Shown: positions 9,024-15,630 of the stretch, one piece after another
How the letters are laid out: the number at the start of each line of letters is the position of its first letter
Numbering within the stretch: position 1 is the first letter of the stretch
Assembly (NCBI GenBank): GCA_948664205.1
Contig: CAPNDH010000003.1
Coordinates: forward strand, 1,330 to 65,329
Direction: 5' to 3'
Source: an uncultured Clostridia bacterium
GTDB lineage: Bacteria; Bacillota; Clostridia; TANB77; CAG-508
Length of the DNA stretch: 64,000 nt
Program-made: the position numbers and the translations under genes
Notes under the pieces: generated by a model
Database searches by the model: none
The model's input: only the letters and a program-made list of their open reading frames with translations
Told to the model about the DNA's origin: nothing

Positions 9024-10499
9024 CTAAATGTTACCTTCTATTATATCATTTACTATTATTCTTTCATCAAATGGGTGTTTAACTCCATTTATTTCTTGGT
9101 ATGGCTCATGTCCTTTTCCTGCTAGAAGGATAATATCTTTTTTGTCTGCCATTTTTATTGCTTTTCTTATTGCTTCTACTCTGTCTACTATTACAGTATA
9201 TTTGCCTTTTGTTTTCTTTATTCCTTCCTCTACTTGGTCTACTATTTTTTGTGGGTCTTCTGTACGTGGATTATCTGATGTTATTATTGTATAATCTGCT
9301 ATTCTTCCTGATATTTCTCCCATTATTGCTCTTTTACTTGTGTCTCTATCTCCTCCACAGCCAAATACTGAAATTACTCTTCCACGTGTATAACTTTTTA
9401 CTGCATTTAATATACTTTCTAAGCTTTCTGGTGAATGTGCATAATCTATCATTATTGTTAATTCTTTGCTGTTATTTACTAATTCACTTCTTCCTGGTAC
9501 TCTTACTTCTTCTAATGCTTCTTTTATTTGGTCTACTGTTGCACCTAATTTTTCTGCTACACATATTGCTGCTAGTGAGTTATATACACTAAATCTTCCT
9601 GGTATTCCTGTTTTTATTCTTTCATTTCTCATTCCTAGTTTTACTTTAAAGTCTACATATGAATTTGTTATTGTTATATCTTTTGCAAGCATATTACAGT
9701 AGTTGTCTATTCCATATGTTGTTATATTGCAGTTTGGAACTAATTTTGGTAGTTTTGCTACATGGTAATCATCTGCATTTATAAATGCTGTTTTACACAT
9801 TTTAAATAACTCTACTTTTGAATTAAAGTAATCTTCCATGTCTGGATGTTCCTTTTCACTTATATGATCTTTTGAGAAGTTAGTAAATACCCCTATGTCA
9901 AACTCTGAACCTGCAACTCTATGTAATTTTAAACTTTGAGAAGATACTTCCATAACTACTGCTTCACAACCTGCTTCTGCCATTTTAGCAAAAATTGATT
10001 GTAATTTATTGCTTTCAGGCGTTGTTCTATCACTATCTTCTAGTTTTTCTTCTCCTATATATGTTGCTATTGTTCCTATTAAACCTACTTTTTTACCTGC
10101 TTTTTCTAATATTTTCTTTATCATAAATGTTGTTGTTGTTTTTCCTTTTGTTCCTGTAACACCTATTAATTTAAACTTTCTTGATGGATTATTATAGAAA
10201 TTACATGAACAGATTGCTAATGCATATCTTGTATCTTTTGCAACTATTACTGTTACTTCTTTTGGTATTTTCTTTATTAATTCTGTGCTTACTCCTTCTT
10301 GTAGCATTACAGCTGTAGCACCTTGACTTATTGCTGTTTCTACATATTCATTTCCATCTGCTGTAAAGCCTTTTACTGCTATAAATAAATCTCCTTTTCC
10401 TATATTTCTAGAGTCTTTATCTAAACCCGCTATTTCTATTTCTAAATTTCCTCTTACTTTTAGGCCTTCTAAGCCTACTAATATTTCATTTAACTTCAT
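9024..10499 (-). CDS. murE: UDP-N-acetylmuramoyl-L-alanyl-D-glutamate--2,6-diaminopimelate ligase
   Basis: P-loop GVTGTKGKTTT, Mur ligase middle and C-terminal domains, and the DNPR motif (ITSDNPRTEDP) typical of meso-DAP-adding MurE. I place the start at ATG 10499 (RBS ggagg). Confidence 0.92.
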   Translation of the reverse strand: MKLNEILVGLEGLKVRGNLEIEIAGLDKDSRNIGKGDLFIAVKGFTADGNEYVETAISQGATAVMLQEGVSTELIKKIPKEVTVIVAKDTRYALAICSCNFYNNPSRKFKLIGVTGTKGKTTTTFMIKKILEKAGKKVGLIGTIATYIGEEKLEDSDRTTPESNKLQSIFAKMAEAGCEAVVMEVSSQSLKLHRVAGSEFDIGVFTNFSKDHISEKEHPDMEDYFNSKVELFKMCKTAFINADDYHVAKLPKLVPNCNITTYGIDNYCNMLAKDITITNSYVDFKVKLGMRNERIKTGIPGRFSVYNSLAAICVAEKLGATVDQIKEALEEVRVPGRSELVNNSKELTIMIDYAHSPESLESILNAVKSYTRGRVISVFGCGGDRDTSKRAIMGEISGRIADYTIITSDNPRTEDPQKIVDQVEEGIKKTKGKYTVIVDRVEAIRKAIKMADKKDIILLAGKGHEPYQEINGVKHPFDERIIVNDIIEGNI

Positions 10500-10569
10500 A
10501 AAATTCCTCCATAATATATTTTGTATGTACATTATATCTCTAATAATTGTATTTGTAAATTATATTACC

Positions 10570-10705
10570 AAAAAAAGCATAACTAAAATTTTCTAAGCTC
10601 ATCCTTCGCTAAGAAAATCTAAGTTCTGCATAATTTATTTCTACGTCAAGTGCCTTATAATATATCTAATGTTTATGTAAAAATGCACTTTCCTAGAACT
10701 AAAAA
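10570..10705 (+). repeat. repeat family A copy (diverged)
   Basis: aaaaaagcataactaaaattttctaagctcatccttcgctaagaaaatctaag ... gcactttcctagaactaaaaaaa. Confidence 0.7.
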
Positions 10706-10745
10706 AATAATCATTACATATATGCAATGATTATTTTTTATTTTA
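10706..10745 (-). terminator. rho-independent terminator of the adhesin gene
   Basis: Stem aataatcatt / aatgattatt, flanked by A and T runs, just downstream of the stop at 10758. Confidence 0.6.
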
Positions 10746-10757
10746 GTTCTTTATAAA

Positions 10758-13700
10758 TTACCTTGCTAATACTTTGTAGTATTCATCTAAATCTGTAGTT
10801 CTAATTATTCCGTCTCCTGATTCTTCCCTTAAGTCTAATGCGCGTAATGCTAATGGGTCTTGTATAACTTCTGCCTTTGCTAAATGTTTTATTAACATAT
10901 CTAAATCTAGTGTTCTTACTCTTCCATCTCCGTCAGCGTCACCTTTTGCTACTATTGAAAATACCTTTTCTTGATTTCCTTTTGTTGCTTTTAATATCAT
11001 TCCTGTTTTTATTCTGTTATCATTTGGTACTGGGTTTCCTTCTTTATCCCATACAGTAAGTACACCATTTGACTCTAAATTGTTTATAAATGTTTGTACT
11101 GATACTGTATTCCCTCTTACTGCTTCTTTTGTATCTACAAATGGTTTGTTTATTTCATAATGTTTTCCTTTGTAAGAGCTAAATAAATTATATATATCTA
11201 TTCCTTCTGAATCTTTTTTAGAAATTACATATAAGTCTTCATCTTCTTTTTCATTTGTAATATCTATTTTTATATTACCATTTTGATTTTTAAGTACTGT
11301 TGCTATATCATTTCCCATTATTAGCTCTGGATTTGCAACTACTATTTTTCCTTCAACTTCTTCAAAGCTTACTTTCACAATAATTACTTCTGAAGTTGCA
11401 TTATAACCTTCTGGTGCTACTTTTTCTTTTATTACAAATGTATGACTTTCTCCTACATTTCCCGGCACAATTCCATTTATTAAAAGCTTACCACTTGTTG
11501 TTCCATATTCTTTAGTAGTACCATTTGGATTTACTATTGTAAATATTGCTGAACCTTGTGTTATTAATTCATTTGTAACTGAATCTAATTTATTTATTTC
11601 TATAGAGTAATTTTGTTTTTGAGCTTCTTCTTTTATTTTATCATTTGTTATTATAAGGTTTACTGTATTCTTTTCTACGCTTTCTGCCTTGCTTATATCT
11701 TCTCCTGTAACTGTATAATTTGCAATTTGTATTTTTTCATTTTCATCTTTAGCAAAATTAATAGCTATTTGTGCAAGGTTTGAATTTAGTTCATATCCTT
11801 CTGGTGATTTTATTTGCTCTATTTCATAGTTAATAGTTCCTTCTAATTTTGGAATTTCTAACTCTATAATTCCACCTTTTATTTGAACTTCCTTATATTC
11901 ATAATTACCTGTATTCTTATTCGTTAATTTTAATACTGTTGTTCCTTGTTCAATTACATTTCCTTCTCTATCCACGCCTGATATTTTTATAAAATATTTT
12001 TCTGGTACTACTACTTGTGGCTCTTGTTCATTTATTACTTTTACATTTACTGTGTTTGCTGTGTTACTTATTTTTTCTATTCTTGCTCCATTTACAACTG
12101 CTGTATTAATAGCTCCATCACTATTAAATGTTATCGTTATTGTTTTTGTAGTTTCATCTAGTATATATCCATTTGGAGCTTTTATTTCTTTTAGTGTGTA
12201 TACGTATTCTTGCCCTAGCATAATCTCTTTATTTGTTTTTGAAAATTCATATGTTATTTTACCTTGTTCATTTGCTTTTAAATAATATGTTTTTCCATCT
12301 GCTATCAACTCAAACATAGTATCAGTTGATTCTATATTTTGATTTTGTGTATTTACTTTATCAATATTTATTGAATAATTATATTTTATTGTTTCTTTTT
12401 GAGTTGGTACATTTAGTGTTGCTACTTTTATATTGTCTTGCTCTGTTACTTCTATACCATTATCTCCGCTTACTAGTACTATTTTTCCGTCAATTTCTTC
12501 AAATGTTAATTTTAGTATTATATCATTTCCTTTTACATATCCAGCTGGTGTTGTGTTTTCAGTTAATATATATACATATGTTCCTGCTTTTTCTGGTGCT
12601 GGTAAATTTTCATTATTTCCTGTTGTAGAATATTCTACTTGTGTTCCATTTGGTAATGTTACTGTATACTTAGTTTCGCCAGTTATAATTTGCCCTTCTT
12701 CATCTACTTTATTTAATACTAATTTAAAGTCTTCTGGTACTGGTTCTATTTCTTCTGCTGGTTTTTCTTCATTTATTATTCTTATATTCACTTCATTTGA
12801 AGTATTGTTTACTTTTTCTATTTTCGTTCCATTTACAACTGCTGTATTAATAGTTCCATCATTATTGAATGTTATTGTTATTGTTTTTTCTGCTTCGTCT
12901 AATACATATCCATTTGGTGCTTTTATCTCTTTTAGTGTGTATACATATTCTTGTCCTTCTACAATTTCTTTATTTGTTATAGAAAACTCATATGTTGCTT
13001 TTCCTAATGGATTTGTTTTTATATATTGTGTTTCACTAGCTGTTGTTAATTCAAATATAGCAATGTCTTCTGTTATACTTGTTTTAAAGTTATCATCTTT
13101 TACTTTATTAATATTTATTGAATAATTATATTTTATTGTTTCTTTTTGAGTTGGTATATTTAATGTTGCTACTTTTATACTATCTTGCTCTGTTACTTCT
13201 ATACCATTATCTCCATTTGTTAGTACTATTTTTCCGTCAATTTCTTCAAATGTTAATTTTAGTACTATGTCATCTCCTTTTACATATCCTGTTGGTGTAG
13301 TACTTTCAGTTAATACATATACATATGTTCCTGCTTTTTCTGGTGCTGGTAAATTTTCATTATTTCCTGTTGTAGAATATTCTACTTGTGTTCCATTTGG
13401 CAATGTTACTGTATATTTAGTTTCAGCAGTTATAGTTTGCCCTTCTTCATCTACTTTATTTATTGCTATTTTAAAGTCTTCTGGTACTGGTGGCATTTTT
13501 TCATTTTTAATATTTACTGTTGCTGTTCTTGGGTCTCCATTTGCAATTGTTATAGCTTCACCATTATAAGAAACTACTTTTCCACTTGATAATATTATTT
13601 TATTATCTTGTTTTTCATATGTAAGTTCTAATATTATATTACTTTCCTCTACTACATATCCATTTGGTGCTTTTGTTTCTTTTATTAAATATGTATATGT

Positions 13701-14756
13701 TCCAGTTTCTTCTGGCGCTAAAACAGCTATATTTTCTGTTTTTCCATTAGCATTGGTTGAGTAGTTTTGCTTTGTACCATCTGGCATTGTTATTGTAAAT
13801 TCTGCTGAACTACTTGTAATACTGTTATTTTCTTCATCTACTTTATTTATTACTAAATTAAATACTTCTTTTTCTGCTTCTGGTTCTTTTGCTTTATTTA
13901 GTATTTTTTCTTCTATTGTATTACTCTCACTTGTAACACTTGCTATTCCATTTGAATTTGAAAGTGCTGTAAGAACATTTCCTTCGTCATCAAATGTTAC
14001 TGTTACTTGTATAGGTTCTTCTACTTTTACATATTCATTTGGAGCTAATATTTCTTCAATAGTATACATATATGGAGCTTCTGTAGTAAGCATTTGTAAT
14101 TCTTGTATATTTATAACTCCATTTTCGTCTGTTTCTTGGTATACTACTTCTCCATCTAATTTTGTAATTTTAAATAATGCACTATTATTAGTTATTGCAT
14201 TTCCACTTTCATCTGTTTTTGTTATTTTTAGGTTATGTGGTATAACATTTTTTTCAACTGGTAATGTTATTTCTGGTATATTTACATTTTCGTCTTCCCA
14301 ATATGCATTTTTATCATTACATGTTACATCTGATTCAATTATTTTGATTGTTGTTTGTGTTTGTGAATTTGTTAATGCCTTAAATTTTAGTGTACATATT
14401 GTATCATTAACTCCCAAAGTTCCATCACCTGATGTCTTTGATAGTATAATTGTTTTAGTATCCATTGCTGATGTATTAGTATAGCCTTCTACGCCTATTA
14501 TTTCTAGTAATTGAAGTTTACTCTCATCATACCATACATTTCCTCTATATACTTTAACTTTACCAAGATTTACTAATTCTGAAATTTTTAGTTCTACTGT
14601 AATTTCATCATTTTCATTATATTTAGATGCATTAGAAGTTAGTTCTAAAACCAATTTATCTTCATTTCCTACTGCATTAACTATAATACTCATATAATTC
14701 ATTAGCATTAATATAATTAAAATTATTGCATATACTTTCTTTGTTATTTTTTTCAT
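10758..14756 (-). CDS. large secreted adhesin: signal peptide, N-terminal cohesin-like domain, about 10 Cna-B/SpaA-type Ig-like repeats, C-terminal dockerin
   Basis: Signal peptide MKKITKKVYAIILIILMLMNYMSIIVNA. The N-terminal domain is paralogous to ORF 14863..15630; both end ..(W/F)(E/D)DENVN(I/A)P. Repeated ..Y(V/T)(L/I)KE(I/T)KAPNGY(V/I).. modules are present. The C-terminus has two EF-hand-like segments, DADGDGRVRTLDLDMLIKHLA and EESGDGIIRTTDLDEYYKVLA. There is no sorting signal. Confidence 0.8.
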   Translation of the reverse strand: MKKITKKVYAIILIILMLMNYMSIIVNAVGNEDKLVLELTSNASKYNENDEITVELKISELVNLGKVKVYRGNVWYDESKLQLLEIIGVEGYTNTSAMDTKTIILSKTSGDGTLGVNDTICTLKFKALTNSQTQTTIKIIESDVTCNDKNAYWEDENVNIPEITLPVEKNVIPHNLKITKTDESGNAITNNSALFKITKLDGEVVYQETDENGVINIQELQMLTTEAPYMYTIEEILAPNEYVKVEEPIQVTVTFDDEGNVLTALSNSNGIASVTSESNTIEEKILNKAKEPEAEKEVFNLVINKVDEENNSITSSSAEFTITMPDGTKQNYSTNANGKTENIAVLAPEETGTYTYLIKETKAPNGYVVEESNIILELTYEKQDNKIILSSGKVVSYNGEAITIANGDPRTATVNIKNEKMPPVPEDFKIAINKVDEEGQTITAETKYTVTLPNGTQVEYSTTGNNENLPAPEKAGTYVYVLTESTTPTGYVKGDDIVLKLTFEEIDGKIVLTNGDNGIEVTEQDSIKVATLNIPTQKETIKYNYSININKVKDDNFKTSITEDIAIFELTTASETQYIKTNPLGKATYEFSITNKEIVEGQEYVYTLKEIKAPNGYVLDEAEKTITITFNNDGTINTAVVNGTKIEKVNNTSNEVNIRIINEEKPAEEIEPVPEDFKLVLNKVDEEGQIITGETKYTVTLPNGTQVEYSTTGNNENLPAPEKAGTYVYILTENTTPAGYVKGNDIILKLTFEEIDGKIVLVSGDNGIEVTEQDNIKVATLNVPTQKETIKYNYSINIDKVNTQNQNIESTDTMFELIADGKTYYLKANEQGKITYEFSKTNKEIMLGQEYVYTLKEIKAPNGYILDETTKTITITFNSDGAINTAVVNGARIEKISNTANTVNVKVINEQEPQVVVPEKYFIKISGVDREGNVIEQGTTVLKLTNKNTGNYEYKEVQIKGGIIELEIPKLEGTINYEIEQIKSPEGYELNSNLAQIAINFAKDENEKIQIANYTVTGEDISKAESVEKNTVNLIITNDKIKEEAQKQNYSIEINKLDSVTNELITQGSAIFTIVNPNGTTKEYGTTSGKLLINGIVPGNVGESHTFVIKEKVAPEGYNATSEVIIVKVSFEEVEGKIVVANPELIMGNDIATVLKNQNGNIKIDITNEKEDEDLYVISKKDSEGIDIYNLFSSYKGKHYEINKPFVDTKEAVRGNTVSVQTFINNLESNGVLTVWDKEGNPVPNDNRIKTGMILKATKGNQEKVFSIVAKGDADGDGRVRTLDLDMLIKHLAKAEVIQDPLALRALDLREESGDGIIRTTDLDEYYKVLAR
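11997..13490. repeat. tandem 747-bp (249-aa) near-identical duplication inside the adhesin gene
   Basis: ttaaagtcttctggtactgg occurs at 12724 and 13471, giving a 747-nt period. The protein units start PVPEDFKIAINKVDEEGQTITAETKYTVTLPNGTQVEYSTTGNNENLPAPEKAGTYVY and PVPEDFKLVLNKVDEEGQIITGETKYTVTLPNGTQVEYSTTGNNENLPAPEKAGTYVY. Confidence 0.9.
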
Positions 14757-14862
14757 ATACCTTCTCCCCTTTATATATTGACGATTCTTGTGTCAAAGTC
14801 ATTGTTTAATGACACTCACACAAGAGCCGTCAATTATATACGTCTCTCGTGTCTTTTTTATA

Positions 14863-15630
14863 TTATTTTAGTTTGTTTTCATATATTTTATATCTTGCAA
14901 ATAATATTCCTACCACAATAATTGCACTTACAATTAATATAACTACCATATAAGGTTCTCCTGTTTGTGGTATTTTTCCTGAAGTTGCAGTCGTTTTGTC
15001 ATTTTTTACTCCTGTATTTGAATCAGTTGGTTTTTTATTGTCATTTGATGGATCTGTTGGTTTTGTTGGGTCTGTTGGATCTGTTGGATCTGTTGGATCT
15101 GTTGGGTCTGTTGGATCTGTTGGGTCTGTTGGGTCTGTTGGATTTACTGGATCTTTAGCAGTTACTTTAAATTCTACATATGGTGCATTTACATTTTCAT
15201 CATCAAAATAGACATTTCCATCACTTCCAGTAGCATCAATTTCTGATAATTGAATTCTTGTATTTTCAACTTCTTTTAATACCTTAAATTTTAGTTTTAC
15301 AATATCTCCAGATTCAGCATATTGATTTCTTACTAATACAATATTTGTAGCATCTTCTTTTACTTCCCATCCATTTAATCCTTCTGCTCCTAAGTATTCA
15401 AATATGGTTTTATCATATGACTTTAAAGTAGTTACTTTACCTACATTACTAAAGCCATTAATACTTCCTATTGAAAATGTAACGCTAACCTCATCTCCTA
15501 CTTTAACATTTACATTTTGAGTTGTTAAATTAAAAGTAGCACTGTAAGCTGCATTTACAATATTAATATTTGATAATAAAATAACCAATGCTAGCAAAAT
15601 TGCTAAACTCACCTTTTTTGTCTTTCTCAT
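14863..15630 (-). CDS. cell-wall-anchored cohesin-like domain protein (signal peptide, cohesin-like domain, (PTD)n linker, IPQTG sorting signal)
   Basis: Signal peptide ...NIVNA. A ~130-aa beta-sandwich-type domain is paralogous to the adhesin N-terminus. The linker is PTDPTDPTDPTDPTDPTDPTDPTDPT. The C-terminus has IPQTGE, a hydrophobic helix and RYK, which is an LPXTG-type sortase signal. Confidence 0.75.
   Translation of the reverse strand: MRKTKKVSLAILLALVILLSNINIVNAAYSATFNLTTQNVNVKVGDEVSVTFSIGSINGFSNVGKVTTLKSYDKTIFEYLGAEGLNGWEVKEDATNIVLVRNQYAESGDIVKLKFKVLKEVENTRIQLSEIDATGSDGNVYFDDENVNAPYVEFKVTAKDPVNPTDPTDPTDPTDPTDPTDPTDPTDPTKPTDPSNDNKKPTDSNTGVKNDKTTATSGKIPQTGEPYMVVILIVSAIIVVGILFARYKIYENKLK
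15050..15145. repeat. 9-bp tandem repeat (ggRtctgtt x ~10) encoding the PTD linker
   Basis: Directly visible run gatctgttgg/gtctgttggg within ORF 14863..15630. Confidence 0.9.

Follow-up and report, generated by a model that had tools for sequence, protein, structure and literature searches.

Cohesins and dockerins outside cellulosomes are common in genomes, mostly without an assigned function. The locus described here, from the metagenome-assembled genome (MAG) of an uncultured low-GC gut Clostridia bacterium with a small genome, raises the question of how a long, exported adhesin that has no sorting signal of its own could be held at the cell surface. The window, i.e. the whole stretch of 64,000 nucleotides that was analysed, carries the two genes concerned side by side on the minus strand, and the list of open reading frames placed both of them exactly where the initial annotation had located them. 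We regard the locus as a compact and testable case, in which a putative anchored socket is encoded beside a stalk adhesin that bears a plug at one end and another socket at its tip.

The anchor protein and its cohesin

The anchor gene (14863..15630, minus strand) encodes 255 amino acids. All four parts that had been proposed for it (signal peptide, cohesin, (PTD)n linker, IPQTG sortase signal) were recovered: a signal peptide that ends after VNA, before A, a cohesin module (CohA; residues ~30-157; 15160..15543, minus strand), a (PTD)n/Pro-Thr linker and, read from the sequence, a complete sortase-substrate signal at the C-terminus (14863..14973, minus strand), in which IPQTG is followed by a hydrophobic helix of 20 hydrophobic residues, the tail RYKIYENKLK and the stop codon. 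Scanning the genome for sorting motifs gave IPQTG and LPKTG twice each, LPITG and TPKTG, and the sortase family PF04203 had nine matches in the genome, none of which lies in the window or on the contig of the window. The complete signal and the nine sortase matches agree with the earlier proposal of a wall-anchored receptor. Judged by its sequence, the anchor protein is fully equipped to be exported and to be joined covalently to peptidoglycan by a sortase acting at IPQTG, after which a single CohA would stand on a Pro/Thr/Asp-rich spacer.

In order to assess the identity of CohA, profile searches and structural models were used. Against the cohesin family PF00963, whose gathering cut-off is 24.1 bits, CohA scored 20.2 bits alone, i.e. 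below the cut-off, and 22.3 bits in a six-frame search, or a borderline 24.4 bits when neighbouring stretches were included. Several orthologues of CohA bear a precomputed PF00963 match. The AlphaFold2 (AF2) model had block-mean pLDDT values of 91-98 over residues ~31-160 with 9-10 beta strands, and a Foldseek search of this model against the PDB returned cohesins for all of the top 13 matches (E-values of 1.3e-9 to 2e-7, TM-scores up to 0.79), the best being 2vo8 (E 1.3e-9, TM 0.78), followed by 1g1k, 2jh2, 4dh2, 5lxv and 2xdh. The modelled fold of CohA is thus the nine-stranded beta-sandwich (jelly-roll) of solved cohesins. Single-sequence phmmer searches against the PDB were uninformative, yielding nothing beyond calmodulin, marginal matches to scaffoldins and matches in Pro/Thr linkers (R. 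bromii Amy4). About 18 close orthologues of the anchor protein were found in metagenomes, nearly all of them with IPQTG. The fold matches of CohA also include domains with other roles, namely the CLIPPER domain of a fibrillar adhesin (9ifr) and the copper protein YcnI (7me6).

The adhesin, its stalk and its dockerin

The second gene (10758..14756, minus strand) encodes a protein of 1332 amino acids with a signal peptide, an N-terminal cohesin (CohN), eight SpaA modules, an X module and a dockerin. The N-terminal domain (residues ~33-167; 14256..14660, minus strand) had been described as a cohesin paralogous to that of the anchor, and this holds: it aligns to CohA with an E-value of 1e-12 at 30% identity (30-38% for the CohN-CohA pair overall) and scores 24.5 bits alone against PF00963, above the cut-off. 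Cohesin identity is thus supported by the profile for CohN and by the fold for CohA, the one of the two that was modelled.

The stalk (11241..14240, minus strand) matches the SpaA family PF17802 in eight stretches (E 8.5e-43), which lowers the earlier count of about ten Ig-like modules to eight SpaA/CnaB-type modules, beginning at residues 174, 299, 428, 545, 677, 794, 921 and 1050. Modules M3 and M5 are 88% identical and M4 and M6 65%, which points to a tandem duplication of two modules. In the module alignment, the Lys, Glu (in ExxxPxGY) and Asn columns are kept in most modules, with M7 lacking the Lys; the modules are probably stabilised by isopeptide bonds. As noted before, the protein has no sorting signal: neither the sequence nor the motif scan revealed one of the LPXTG type. 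A sortase-assembled pilus was rejected on this ground and because no sortase lies on the contig of the window.

For the C-terminal 62 residues (1271-1332; 10761..10946, minus strand), the dockerin family PF00404 (gathering cut-off of 22.9 bits) gave 23.7 bits with the isolated C-terminal 158 residues, 24.8 bits in the six-frame search and 19.1 bits in a scan of the full-length protein. The model of X module plus dockerin reached a pLDDT of 95.7 and a pTM of 0.90. Its last 62 residues superposed on 1ohz_B, a type I dockerin of C. thermocellum, with a TM-score of 0.90, an rmsd of 1.2 A and 30% identity, and on 2ccl_B with an rmsd of 1.2 A and a TM-score of 0.87; for so short a module, the Foldseek E-values were weak (0.1-0.2). 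The C-terminus thus passes the dockerin profile, and its modelled structure is a three-helix dockerin fold superposable on solved dockerins. The module consists of loop 1 (DADGDGRVRTLD) with its helix, a linker helix DPLALRALD and an expanded loop 2 (DLREESGDGIIRTTD) with its helix. Of the canonical two-segment dockerin announced in the initial annotation, the dockerin itself and segment 1 stand, the latter being a 12-residue DxDxDG loop with D1, D3, D5, G6 and D12, but loop 2 is not fully canonical: it is longer by a 3-residue insertion and varies at positions 1 and 3, which makes binding of a second Ca2+ uncertain. Both loops have Arg at position 9, and the invariant residues in the dockerin alignment are G98, D99, G104, D110, D134 and D148.

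Directly N-terminal to the dockerin lies the X module (residues 1175-1270; 10947..11234, minus strand), a conserved, beta-rich stretch of about 95 residues in the model. Foldseek found no convincing match for it in the PDB, the Ig-like and MCU N-terminal-domain matches being of low probability; in alignment, four canonical dockerins of the genome are likewise preceded by sequence that aligns with its C-terminal half. Homologues of the adhesin (n=22, 1090-1731 aa) all have PF17802 and the same C-terminal X-dockerin. Taken together, the 1332-aa protein is, judged by sequence and models, exported without a covalent anchor and follows the layout of Gram-positive fibrillar adhesins, but with the X-module-dockerin in place of the LPXTG tail and with CohN at the tip.

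Cohesins and dockerins elsewhere in the genome

The locus had been presented as a minimal two-gene system, which does not hold at the level of the genome: the MAG has at least eight dockerin ORFs and at least six cohesins on five contigs. The dockerin ORFs include amidase, SH3, RCC1, transglutaminase-like and Big_2 proteins and a 4260-aa giant, which bears an X-dockerin of the same family as the adhesin and a VWA tip at the position corresponding to CohN. A second pair of anchor and cargo is found on contig C19, where a transglutaminase-like protein of 1255 aa, which has both a cohesin and a dockerin, adjoins a 266-aa cohesin protein with LPKTG. On contig C39, a 338-aa LPKTG protein is another anchored cohesin, and a 163-aa protein makes up the sixth of the cohesins. 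Two X-dockerin subtypes occur in the genome, that of the window and that of the giant; the latter has a 9-residue insertion in loop 1, the reverse of the loop arrangement in the dockerin of the window. Many proteins of 2,000-5,300 aa match the X-dockerin profile at their C-terminus, and both of those that were scanned have SpaA stalks. Since the MAG is 69.6% complete, partners may be missing.

The non-cellulosomal context, by comparison, was borne out. No GH5 and no GH9 were found in the 69.6%-complete MAG; GH48 was not found either, which is of little weight as the search drew a blank in the 14 control genomes too. No CAZyme domain was detected on the dockerin proteins scanned, among which coverage was incomplete for a 1552-aa protein (its sequence being RCC1-like) and for the greater part of the 4260-aa giant. 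A cellulosome was rejected, as neither cellulases nor a CBM-bearing multi-cohesin scaffoldin turned up in this incomplete MAG, each cohesin protein of which has a single cohesin.

Conservation among relatives

Strong matches to CohA (E < 1e-30) were obtained in only four of 25 same-genus genomes (G000, G008, G018 and G021), and strong matches to the X-dockerin of the window in the same four, compared to canonical dockerins in 24 of the 24 same-genus relatives searched; the four genomes may form one clade, in which case the co-occurrence counts as one or two events. The order of anchor and adhesin is kept in L016, G008 and G021, and probably also on metagenome contigs, as anchor and adhesin matches agree in the lengths of their longest contigs (8386 and 4945). 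In G018, CohA is directly followed by murE without an adjacent adhesin, and a 4719-aa giant of this genome bears the same dockerin subtype. L016, G008 and G021 have a third, membrane-anchored cohesin gene at the locus; a tblastn search for it in the genome of the window recovered only CohA, CohN and a weak match to the C19 cohesin.

The modules diverge at different rates. Between loci, identity is 38-53% for CohN compared to 48-68% for CohA and 53-65% for the X-dockerin, making CohN the fastest-diverging module. The X-dockerin of the G008 adhesin is 82% identical to that of the giant of G008 itself and 54% to that of the window. Judged by these identities, the X-dockerin is an exchangeable anchor cassette, swapped between giant and adhesin in G008. 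This genome has only the subtype with the insertion in loop 1, yet its CohA is 68-71% identical. An assignment of dockerin subtypes to cohesins by presence and absence in G000, G008, G018, G021 and L016 was rejected, the pattern being inconsistent.

Proposed assembly and alternatives

The reading that we favour, and hold to be fairly probable, is that cohesins and dockerins form a surface-display network across the genome, poor in enzymes, of which the locus is one branch, and that the X-dockerin of the adhesin plugs into CohA. The adhesin would then probably hang non-covalently on the cell surface via the anchored cohesin, as the initial annotation had suggested. The pairing of CohA with this X-dockerin is deduced from conserved adjacency and phyletic co-occurrence, both of which fit it, and the choice of CohA among the six cohesins as the partner of this dockerin is likewise a deduction. 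Mechanistically, the X-dockerin would plug into CohA in a Ca2+-dependent manner and the stalk would project from the wall, with the force entering the X-dockerin from its N-terminal and the cohesin from its C-terminal end, as for CttA-XDoc on ScaE. The 4260-aa giant, with its VWA tip and related X-dockerin, is probably held by CohA as well. At the distal end, CohN would act as a further socket, into which either another protein with an X-dockerin (in stacking or as an adaptor) or an external ligand could fit. Self-capping in cis was rejected, as the eight-module stalk keeps the CohN and dockerin ends apart.

What CohN receives decides between several readings. Tentatively, the tip cohesin could make the adhesins stackable, an X-dockerin adhesin or the VWA giant plugging into the tip of a docked stalk and thereby giving extensible, exchangeable non-covalent fibres; if so, the cell would have an alternative to pilus polymerisation that needs no sortase and is built from isopeptide-type stalks, and some of the many Firmicutes fibrillar adhesins without a known anchor would turn out to be held by dockerins, an anchor class not recognised so far. 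Strict homopolymerisation, in which CohN binds the dockerin of the next adhesin copy so that non-covalent fibres grow head-to-tail from a CohA-bound base, would amount to a sortase-independent pilus analogue. It agrees with the presence in one protein of both a cohesin paralogous to CohA and a dockerin, would give the same pulling geometry at every link of the chain and has a precedent in R. bromii Amy4, whose cohesin binds its own dockerin (PMC4611034). We nevertheless consider it unlikely: cohesins as distant as CohN and CohA often differ in specificity, and the faster divergence of CohN than of the X-dockerin is unexpected for a tightly co-evolving self-pair. It is doubtful, too, that the adhesin acts on CohA as an extension scaffoldin whose CohN captures a different dockerin protein, such as the VWA giant or dockerin-tagged wall hydrolases. 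Adaptor scaffoldins that dock and then capture a different dockerin protein are established in cellulosomes (PMC4959524), and two X-dockerin subtypes in the genome, two cohesins at the locus and the second cohesin-plus-dockerin protein beside an anchor on C19 would suit such a role, but the mapping of subtypes to cohesins is inconsistent across genomes, and the adhesin and the giant of G008 share one subtype.

CohN could also be no dockerin receptor at all, and instead an adhesive tip that binds an external ligand, e.g. from the host or the diet, leaving CohA and the X-dockerin as the only pair. The VWA at the same position in the giant paralogue, the rapid divergence of CohN and the cohesin-like folds with other roles among the fold matches (9ifr, 7me6) speak for this; we think it rather improbable, since CohN passes the cohesin profile and is, within the genome, most closely related to other cohesins, and since the network offers many candidate dockerins. 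Finally, the adjacency of the two genes could be coincidental, with the adhesin docking on the 266-aa cohesin of C19 or the 338-aa LPKTG cohesin of C39 and CohA serving other dockerins. Several anchored cohesins do exist in the genome and cohesins can be promiscuous, e.g. R. bromii Sca2, Sca3 and Sca4 (PMC4611034); given the conserved synteny and the restriction of CohA and the X-dockerin family to the same 4 of 25 genus genomes, compared to canonical dockerins in 24 of 24 relatives, we regard coincidence as very unlikely.

Comparison with known systems

Docking of the adhesin on CohA, the reading preferred here, is the anchoring trick of cellulosomes reused without cellulases, and as a mechanism it is not new. 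The closest known systems are ScaE-CttA of R. flavefaciens and Sca2-Amy4 of R. bromii. ScaE-CttA of R. flavefaciens and R. champanellensis is a type III cohesin paired with an X-module-dockerin (PDB 4IU3 as cited in PMC7456326), and binding was measured for the Rf/Rc XDoc:Coh complexes (PMC7456326). As would be the case here, a sortase-anchored single cohesin is the docking site of an adhesion protein that is no enzyme and ends in an X-module-dockerin, with the same predicted pulling geometry and an X module packed against the dockerin (pTM 0.90 in our model). The cargo differs, being a SpaA-type stalk with a cohesin tip here and a cellulose-binding protein in CttA; GH5, GH9 and GH48 were not found in the incomplete MAG of the organism, the X module has no fold match in the PDB, and the nearest structures are a type I dockerin (1ohz_B) for the dockerin and non-cellulosomal cohesins of C. 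perfringens for CohA. In the amylosome of R. bromii, for which binding of Sca2 and Amy4 was measured (PMC4611034), a sortase-anchored single-cohesin protein (Sca2) likewise stands beside cargo with both cohesin and dockerin (Amy4/Sca1, self-binding) (PMC4611034), and dockerins are also found on proteases and proteins of unknown function, the cohesin serving as a general surface anchor. Amy4 is, however, a GH13 amylase in which the cohesin adjoins the dockerin, whereas the cargo here is enzyme-free and has them at opposite ends of an eight-module stalk.

The non-cellulosomal pairs of C. perfringens (PDB 2vo8, 2jh2, 2w1n) provide the best structural matches of CohA (TM 0.78-0.79) and also employ cohesin and dockerin outside cellulose degradation, but they link secreted glycoside hydrolases to each other, with neither a sortase-anchored receptor nor an adhesin stalk. 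Sortase-anchored fibrillar adhesins and pili (Cna, SpaA-type; PMC8286594) share the N-terminal tip, the stalk of SpaA/CnaB repeats and a C-terminal anchoring device, which is LPXTG in their case and a non-covalent dockerin here. The main text of the two published surveys of fibrillar adhesins never mentions dockerin or cohesin, and the list of anchor models in PMC8286594 includes neither. As the X-dockerin is found at the C-terminus of so many large proteins, dockerin anchoring may account for part of the fibrillar adhesins without a known anchor in gut Clostridia. Such a non-covalent, exchangeable anchor would permit adhesins to be swapped or shed without new wall synthesis, and the modules may serve as small orthogonal plug-and-socket parts.

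RNA hairpins flanking the adhesin gene

Folding of the locus revealed two hairpins on the minus strand. Directly 3' of the stop codon of the adhesin gene, an AT-rich hairpin with a U run (10695..10750) has a fold energy of -22.4 kcal/mol (z -8.5). A consensus terminator scan of the minus strand returned nothing, and this hairpin escaped it because the scan requires three G-C pairs; for the two-gene unit, it likely serves as intrinsic terminator. The hairpin between anchor and adhesin (14773..14840) has no U tract and folds with -30.9 kcal/mol (z -5.7). It is kept in four loci, with a compensatory change from U-A to C-G in the inner stem, and probably sets the ratio of anchor to adhesin expression.

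Domain architecture of the anchor and the adhesin

Both genes assigned by the initial annotation to a wall-anchored receptor and an adhesin were recovered as minus-strand ORFs at the positions claimed, 14863-15630 (255 aa, the anchor) and 10758-14756 (1332 aa, the adhesin). The anchor begins with a signal peptide (MRKTKKVSLAILLALVILLSNINIVNA/A) and a domain of ~130 aa, and then runs from a (PTD)n-rich linker through the sorting signal IPQTG and a 20-residue hydrophobic stretch to a basic tail. In a full-length Pfam scan, the anchor scored 20.2 bits on PF00963 (Cohesin), below the gathering score of 24.1. In a model built on an alignment of ~30 homologues, its domain, termed CohA, formed a beta sandwich at approximately residues 31-160 with block-mean pLDDT values of 91-98, and ranks 1-13 of a Foldseek search against the PDB were all cohesins. 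The best matches were the non-cellulosomal Clostridium perfringens cohesins 2vo8 (E 1.3e-9, TM 0.78) and 2jh2, followed by cohesins of C. cellulolyticum, C. thermocellum OlpC (4dh2), R. flavefaciens ScaC and Archaeoglobus. Sequence and model agree with the predicted layout of signal peptide, cohesin-fold domain, linker and sorting signal.

The adhesin starts with a similar signal peptide, followed by its own cohesin (CohN) and a series of repeats, and, as predicted, its sequence carries no sorting signal. CohN is paralogous to CohA, as had been proposed (30% identity, BLASTP E 1e-12), and the N-terminal 175 aa reach 24.5 bits on PF00963. The stalk was expected to hold about 10 Ig-like modules; module alignment gave eight (M1-M8), starting at residues 174, 299, 428, 545, 677, 794, 921 and 1050, and the full-length Pfam scan found SpaA (PF17802) in 8 stretches (E 8.5e-43). 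The pairs M3-M4 and M5-M6 are a recent tandem duplication, with 88% identity between M3 and M5 and 65% between M4 and M6.

The adhesin C-terminus reads ...GDADGDGRVRTLDLDMLIKHLA...DLREESGDGIIRTTDLDEYYKVLAR. On PF00404 (Dockerin_1), the full-length protein scored 19.1 bits, below the gathering score of 22.9, and the C-terminal 158 aa alone scored 23.7 bits, above it; as isolated modules, two of three pass the Pfam gathering score, and a six-frame genome search was concordant. A model of these 158 aa, built from 21 sequences (pLDDT 95.7, pTM 0.90), shows a beta-rich part (residues 1-95) packed on three helices, which superpose on type I dockerin structures of C. thermocellum (1ohz_B, TM 0.90, rmsd 1.2 Å, 30% identity; 2ccl_B, TM 0.87). 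The segment had been described as a canonical two-segment dockerin. The dockerin fold and a regular 12-residue loop 1 uphold this description, but loop 2 is expanded by a 3-residue insertion and variable at positions 1 and 3 in the alignment, so that the dockerin is not fully canonical. Position 9 is Arg in both Ca loops. A conserved X module, absent from the earlier description, lies N-terminal to the dockerin; we refer to the two together as the X-dockerin. A sister subtype, found on a 4260-aa protein of the same genome (the giant) and on the adhesin of the related genome G008, is reversed: its loop 1 is enlarged by an insertion of 9 residues, and its loop 2 is regular. The proposal therefore withstands the checks that the initial annotation had set on the N-terminal domains as cohesins and on the C-terminus as a dockerin, given the cohesin fold of the CohA model, the Pfam scores of CohN and the dockerin, and the dockerin superposition.

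Proposed pairing of the adhesin dockerin with the anchored cohesin

The locus L016 and the genomes G008 and G021 share one gene order, in which the gene for a small membrane protein comes first and the anchor, the adhesin, a third gene, murE and mraY follow. The product of the third gene (193-201 aa) has a signal peptide, a cohesin and, at its C-terminus, a membrane helix; this gene was not found in G000, the metagenome-assembled genome holding the window. As a natural control, murE directly follows the anchor gene in G018, without an adhesin between. In a set of 25 same-genus genomes, CohA has strong matches in G000, G008, G018 and G021 only, and the window X-dockerin likewise has strong matches in these four only; that of G018 is of the window's subtype and sits on a 4719-aa giant. 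Since these four genomes may be close kin, the co-occurrence may count as few events. Synteny and co-occurrence make docking of the adhesin onto the anchored cohesin, as suggested by the initial annotation, plausible, although the pairing itself is inferred. No consistent assignment of the two dockerin subtypes to particular cohesins emerged. Between loci, CohN diverges fastest (38-53% identity, compared to 48-68% for CohA and 53-65% for the X-dockerin). The X-dockerin of the G008 adhesin is 82% identical to that of its own giant and 54% to that of the window, with 68% identity between the CohA domains of G008 and G000; the X-dockerin therefore behaves as an exchangeable anchor cassette.

The data show what the modules are, that signals for export and sorting are present, that the adhesin is devoid of a covalent anchor and that the gene pairing is conserved. 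We propose that a sortase would fix CohA to peptidoglycan and that the adhesin X-dockerin would bind CohA with Ca2+. Force would then pass from the X-dockerin N-terminus to the cohesin C-terminus. In the single-molecule literature, CttA-ScaE is strong when pulled in this, its native, geometry. A related R. champanellensis XDoc:Coh complex is treated elsewhere (PMC7456326). The VWA-tipped giant would use the same or a sister socket. The partner of CohN may be the adhesin's own dockerin, giving a polymer, another dockerin protein, for which it would be an adaptor, or an external ligand.

The anchor-adhesin spacer of 106 bp contains a hairpin at 14773-14840 (minus strand; -30.9 kcal/mol, z -5.7) without a U tract, which ends ~15 nt upstream of the adhesin ribosome-binding site and is kept in all four loci, with one compensatory pair in the inner stem. 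Its role may be to set the ratio of anchor to adhesin, by stabilising the anchor message at its 3' end or by acting as a leaky terminator. The adhesin stop codon is directly followed by another hairpin, AT-rich and with a U run (-22.4 kcal/mol, z -8.5), and murE has a promoter-like site of its own. In the region 10499-10559 (minus strand), the start annotated for murE at 10532 probably lies 11 codons too far upstream, since relatives begin at MKL(N/K)EILxGLEG; just upstream of the shorter start there is then a promoter close to consensus (TTTACA, 17 nt spacer, TATAAT).

Cohesins and dockerins elsewhere in the genome

G000 (1.41 Mb, 86 contigs, 69.6% complete, ~27% G+C) does not bear out a minimal two-gene system, as the genome search gave 8 dockerin and 6-7 cohesin matches. 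Two putative wall-associated enzymes carry canonical dockerins, a 534-aa Amidase_3/Big_2 protein (C19:6855-8459) and an SH3_3 protein (C36:4589-6511); they suggest that, in this lineage, cohesin-dockerin pairs take the place of the non-covalent modules that usually bind the wall. Three dockerin proteins are encoded in a cluster at C2:53264-74682 (L003, L004, L008), two RCC1 proteins of 606 and 1552 aa with one dockerin type in common (one Pfam-scanned, one judged from its sequence) and the giant, with an N-terminal VWA_2 domain and a C-terminal X-dockerin of the window's family. In a Big_2-dockerin ORF at C39:3217-4434, the dockerin frame breaks off behind the first segment (GDINGDGKINSLDLLVLQRHILEIERLNGTFLKARKYKQ...), apparently through a frameshift or an error in assembly. 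Genes flanking this ORF encode a Coh-LPKTG protein, a sortase and a 163-aa secreted cohesin-like protein.

Small cohesin anchors with LPKTG are encoded on C19 (266 aa; signal peptide, cohesin, Asn-rich linker, LPKTG) and on C39 (338 aa, adjoined by a sortase gene). At C19:15025-19614 (L005, L009, L010), the 266-aa anchor immediately follows a 1255-aa secreted transglutaminase-like protein with Ig-like domains, an internal cohesin and a canonical X-dockerin. This pair follows the same logic as the one in the window: the cargo has both a cohesin and a dockerin, and its neighbour is a small cohesin anchor. A related trio in G023 (L033) has cohesin proteins on both sides. The sole other IPQTG protein of the assembly (474 aa, C6:1592-3016) contains DNSIS, a motif of the MIDAS type (DxSxS) that points to a candidate VWA domain. 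IPQTG may therefore be the signature of proteins handled by a single sortase.

The non-cellulolytic setting that had been claimed holds within this 69.6%-complete assembly: GH5, GH9 and GH48 were not found, the GH48 search also matching nothing in control genomes, and no scanned dockerin protein of G000 has a CAZyme domain.

Relation to known systems and distribution

Cohesin-dockerin anchoring is already known. In logic, the closest known system is ScaE with CttA of R. flavefaciens, a species whose transglutaminase-like and LRR dockerin proteins are suspected of cell-surface roles (PMC2930009). In architecture, it is Sca2 with Amy4 of R. bromii, because the cargo, Amy4, likewise has a cohesin and a dockerin and the Amy4 cohesin binds Amy4's own dockerin (PMC4611034). 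The window system differs from both in its cargo, a SpaA stalk without enzyme and with cohesin and dockerin at opposite ends, and in its new X module, asymmetric dockerin loops and non-cellulolytic small-genome host. Two surveys of fibrillar adhesins mention neither dockerin nor cohesin in their main text, both are absent from the anchor-model list of PMC8286594, and one survey reports that about half of such proteins lack a known anchor.

Dockerins were present in all 24 same-genus genomes searched (1-10 per genome), often on ORFs of 2,000-5,300 aa. A profile search with the X-dockerin gave only 11 representative clusters at E < 1e-30, including proteins of 2781, 4441 and 4610 aa. At E < 1e-10 the number rose to 197, and many of these matches are C-terminal in proteins of 3,700-5,300 aa. 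Both profile matches scanned have SpaA stalks.
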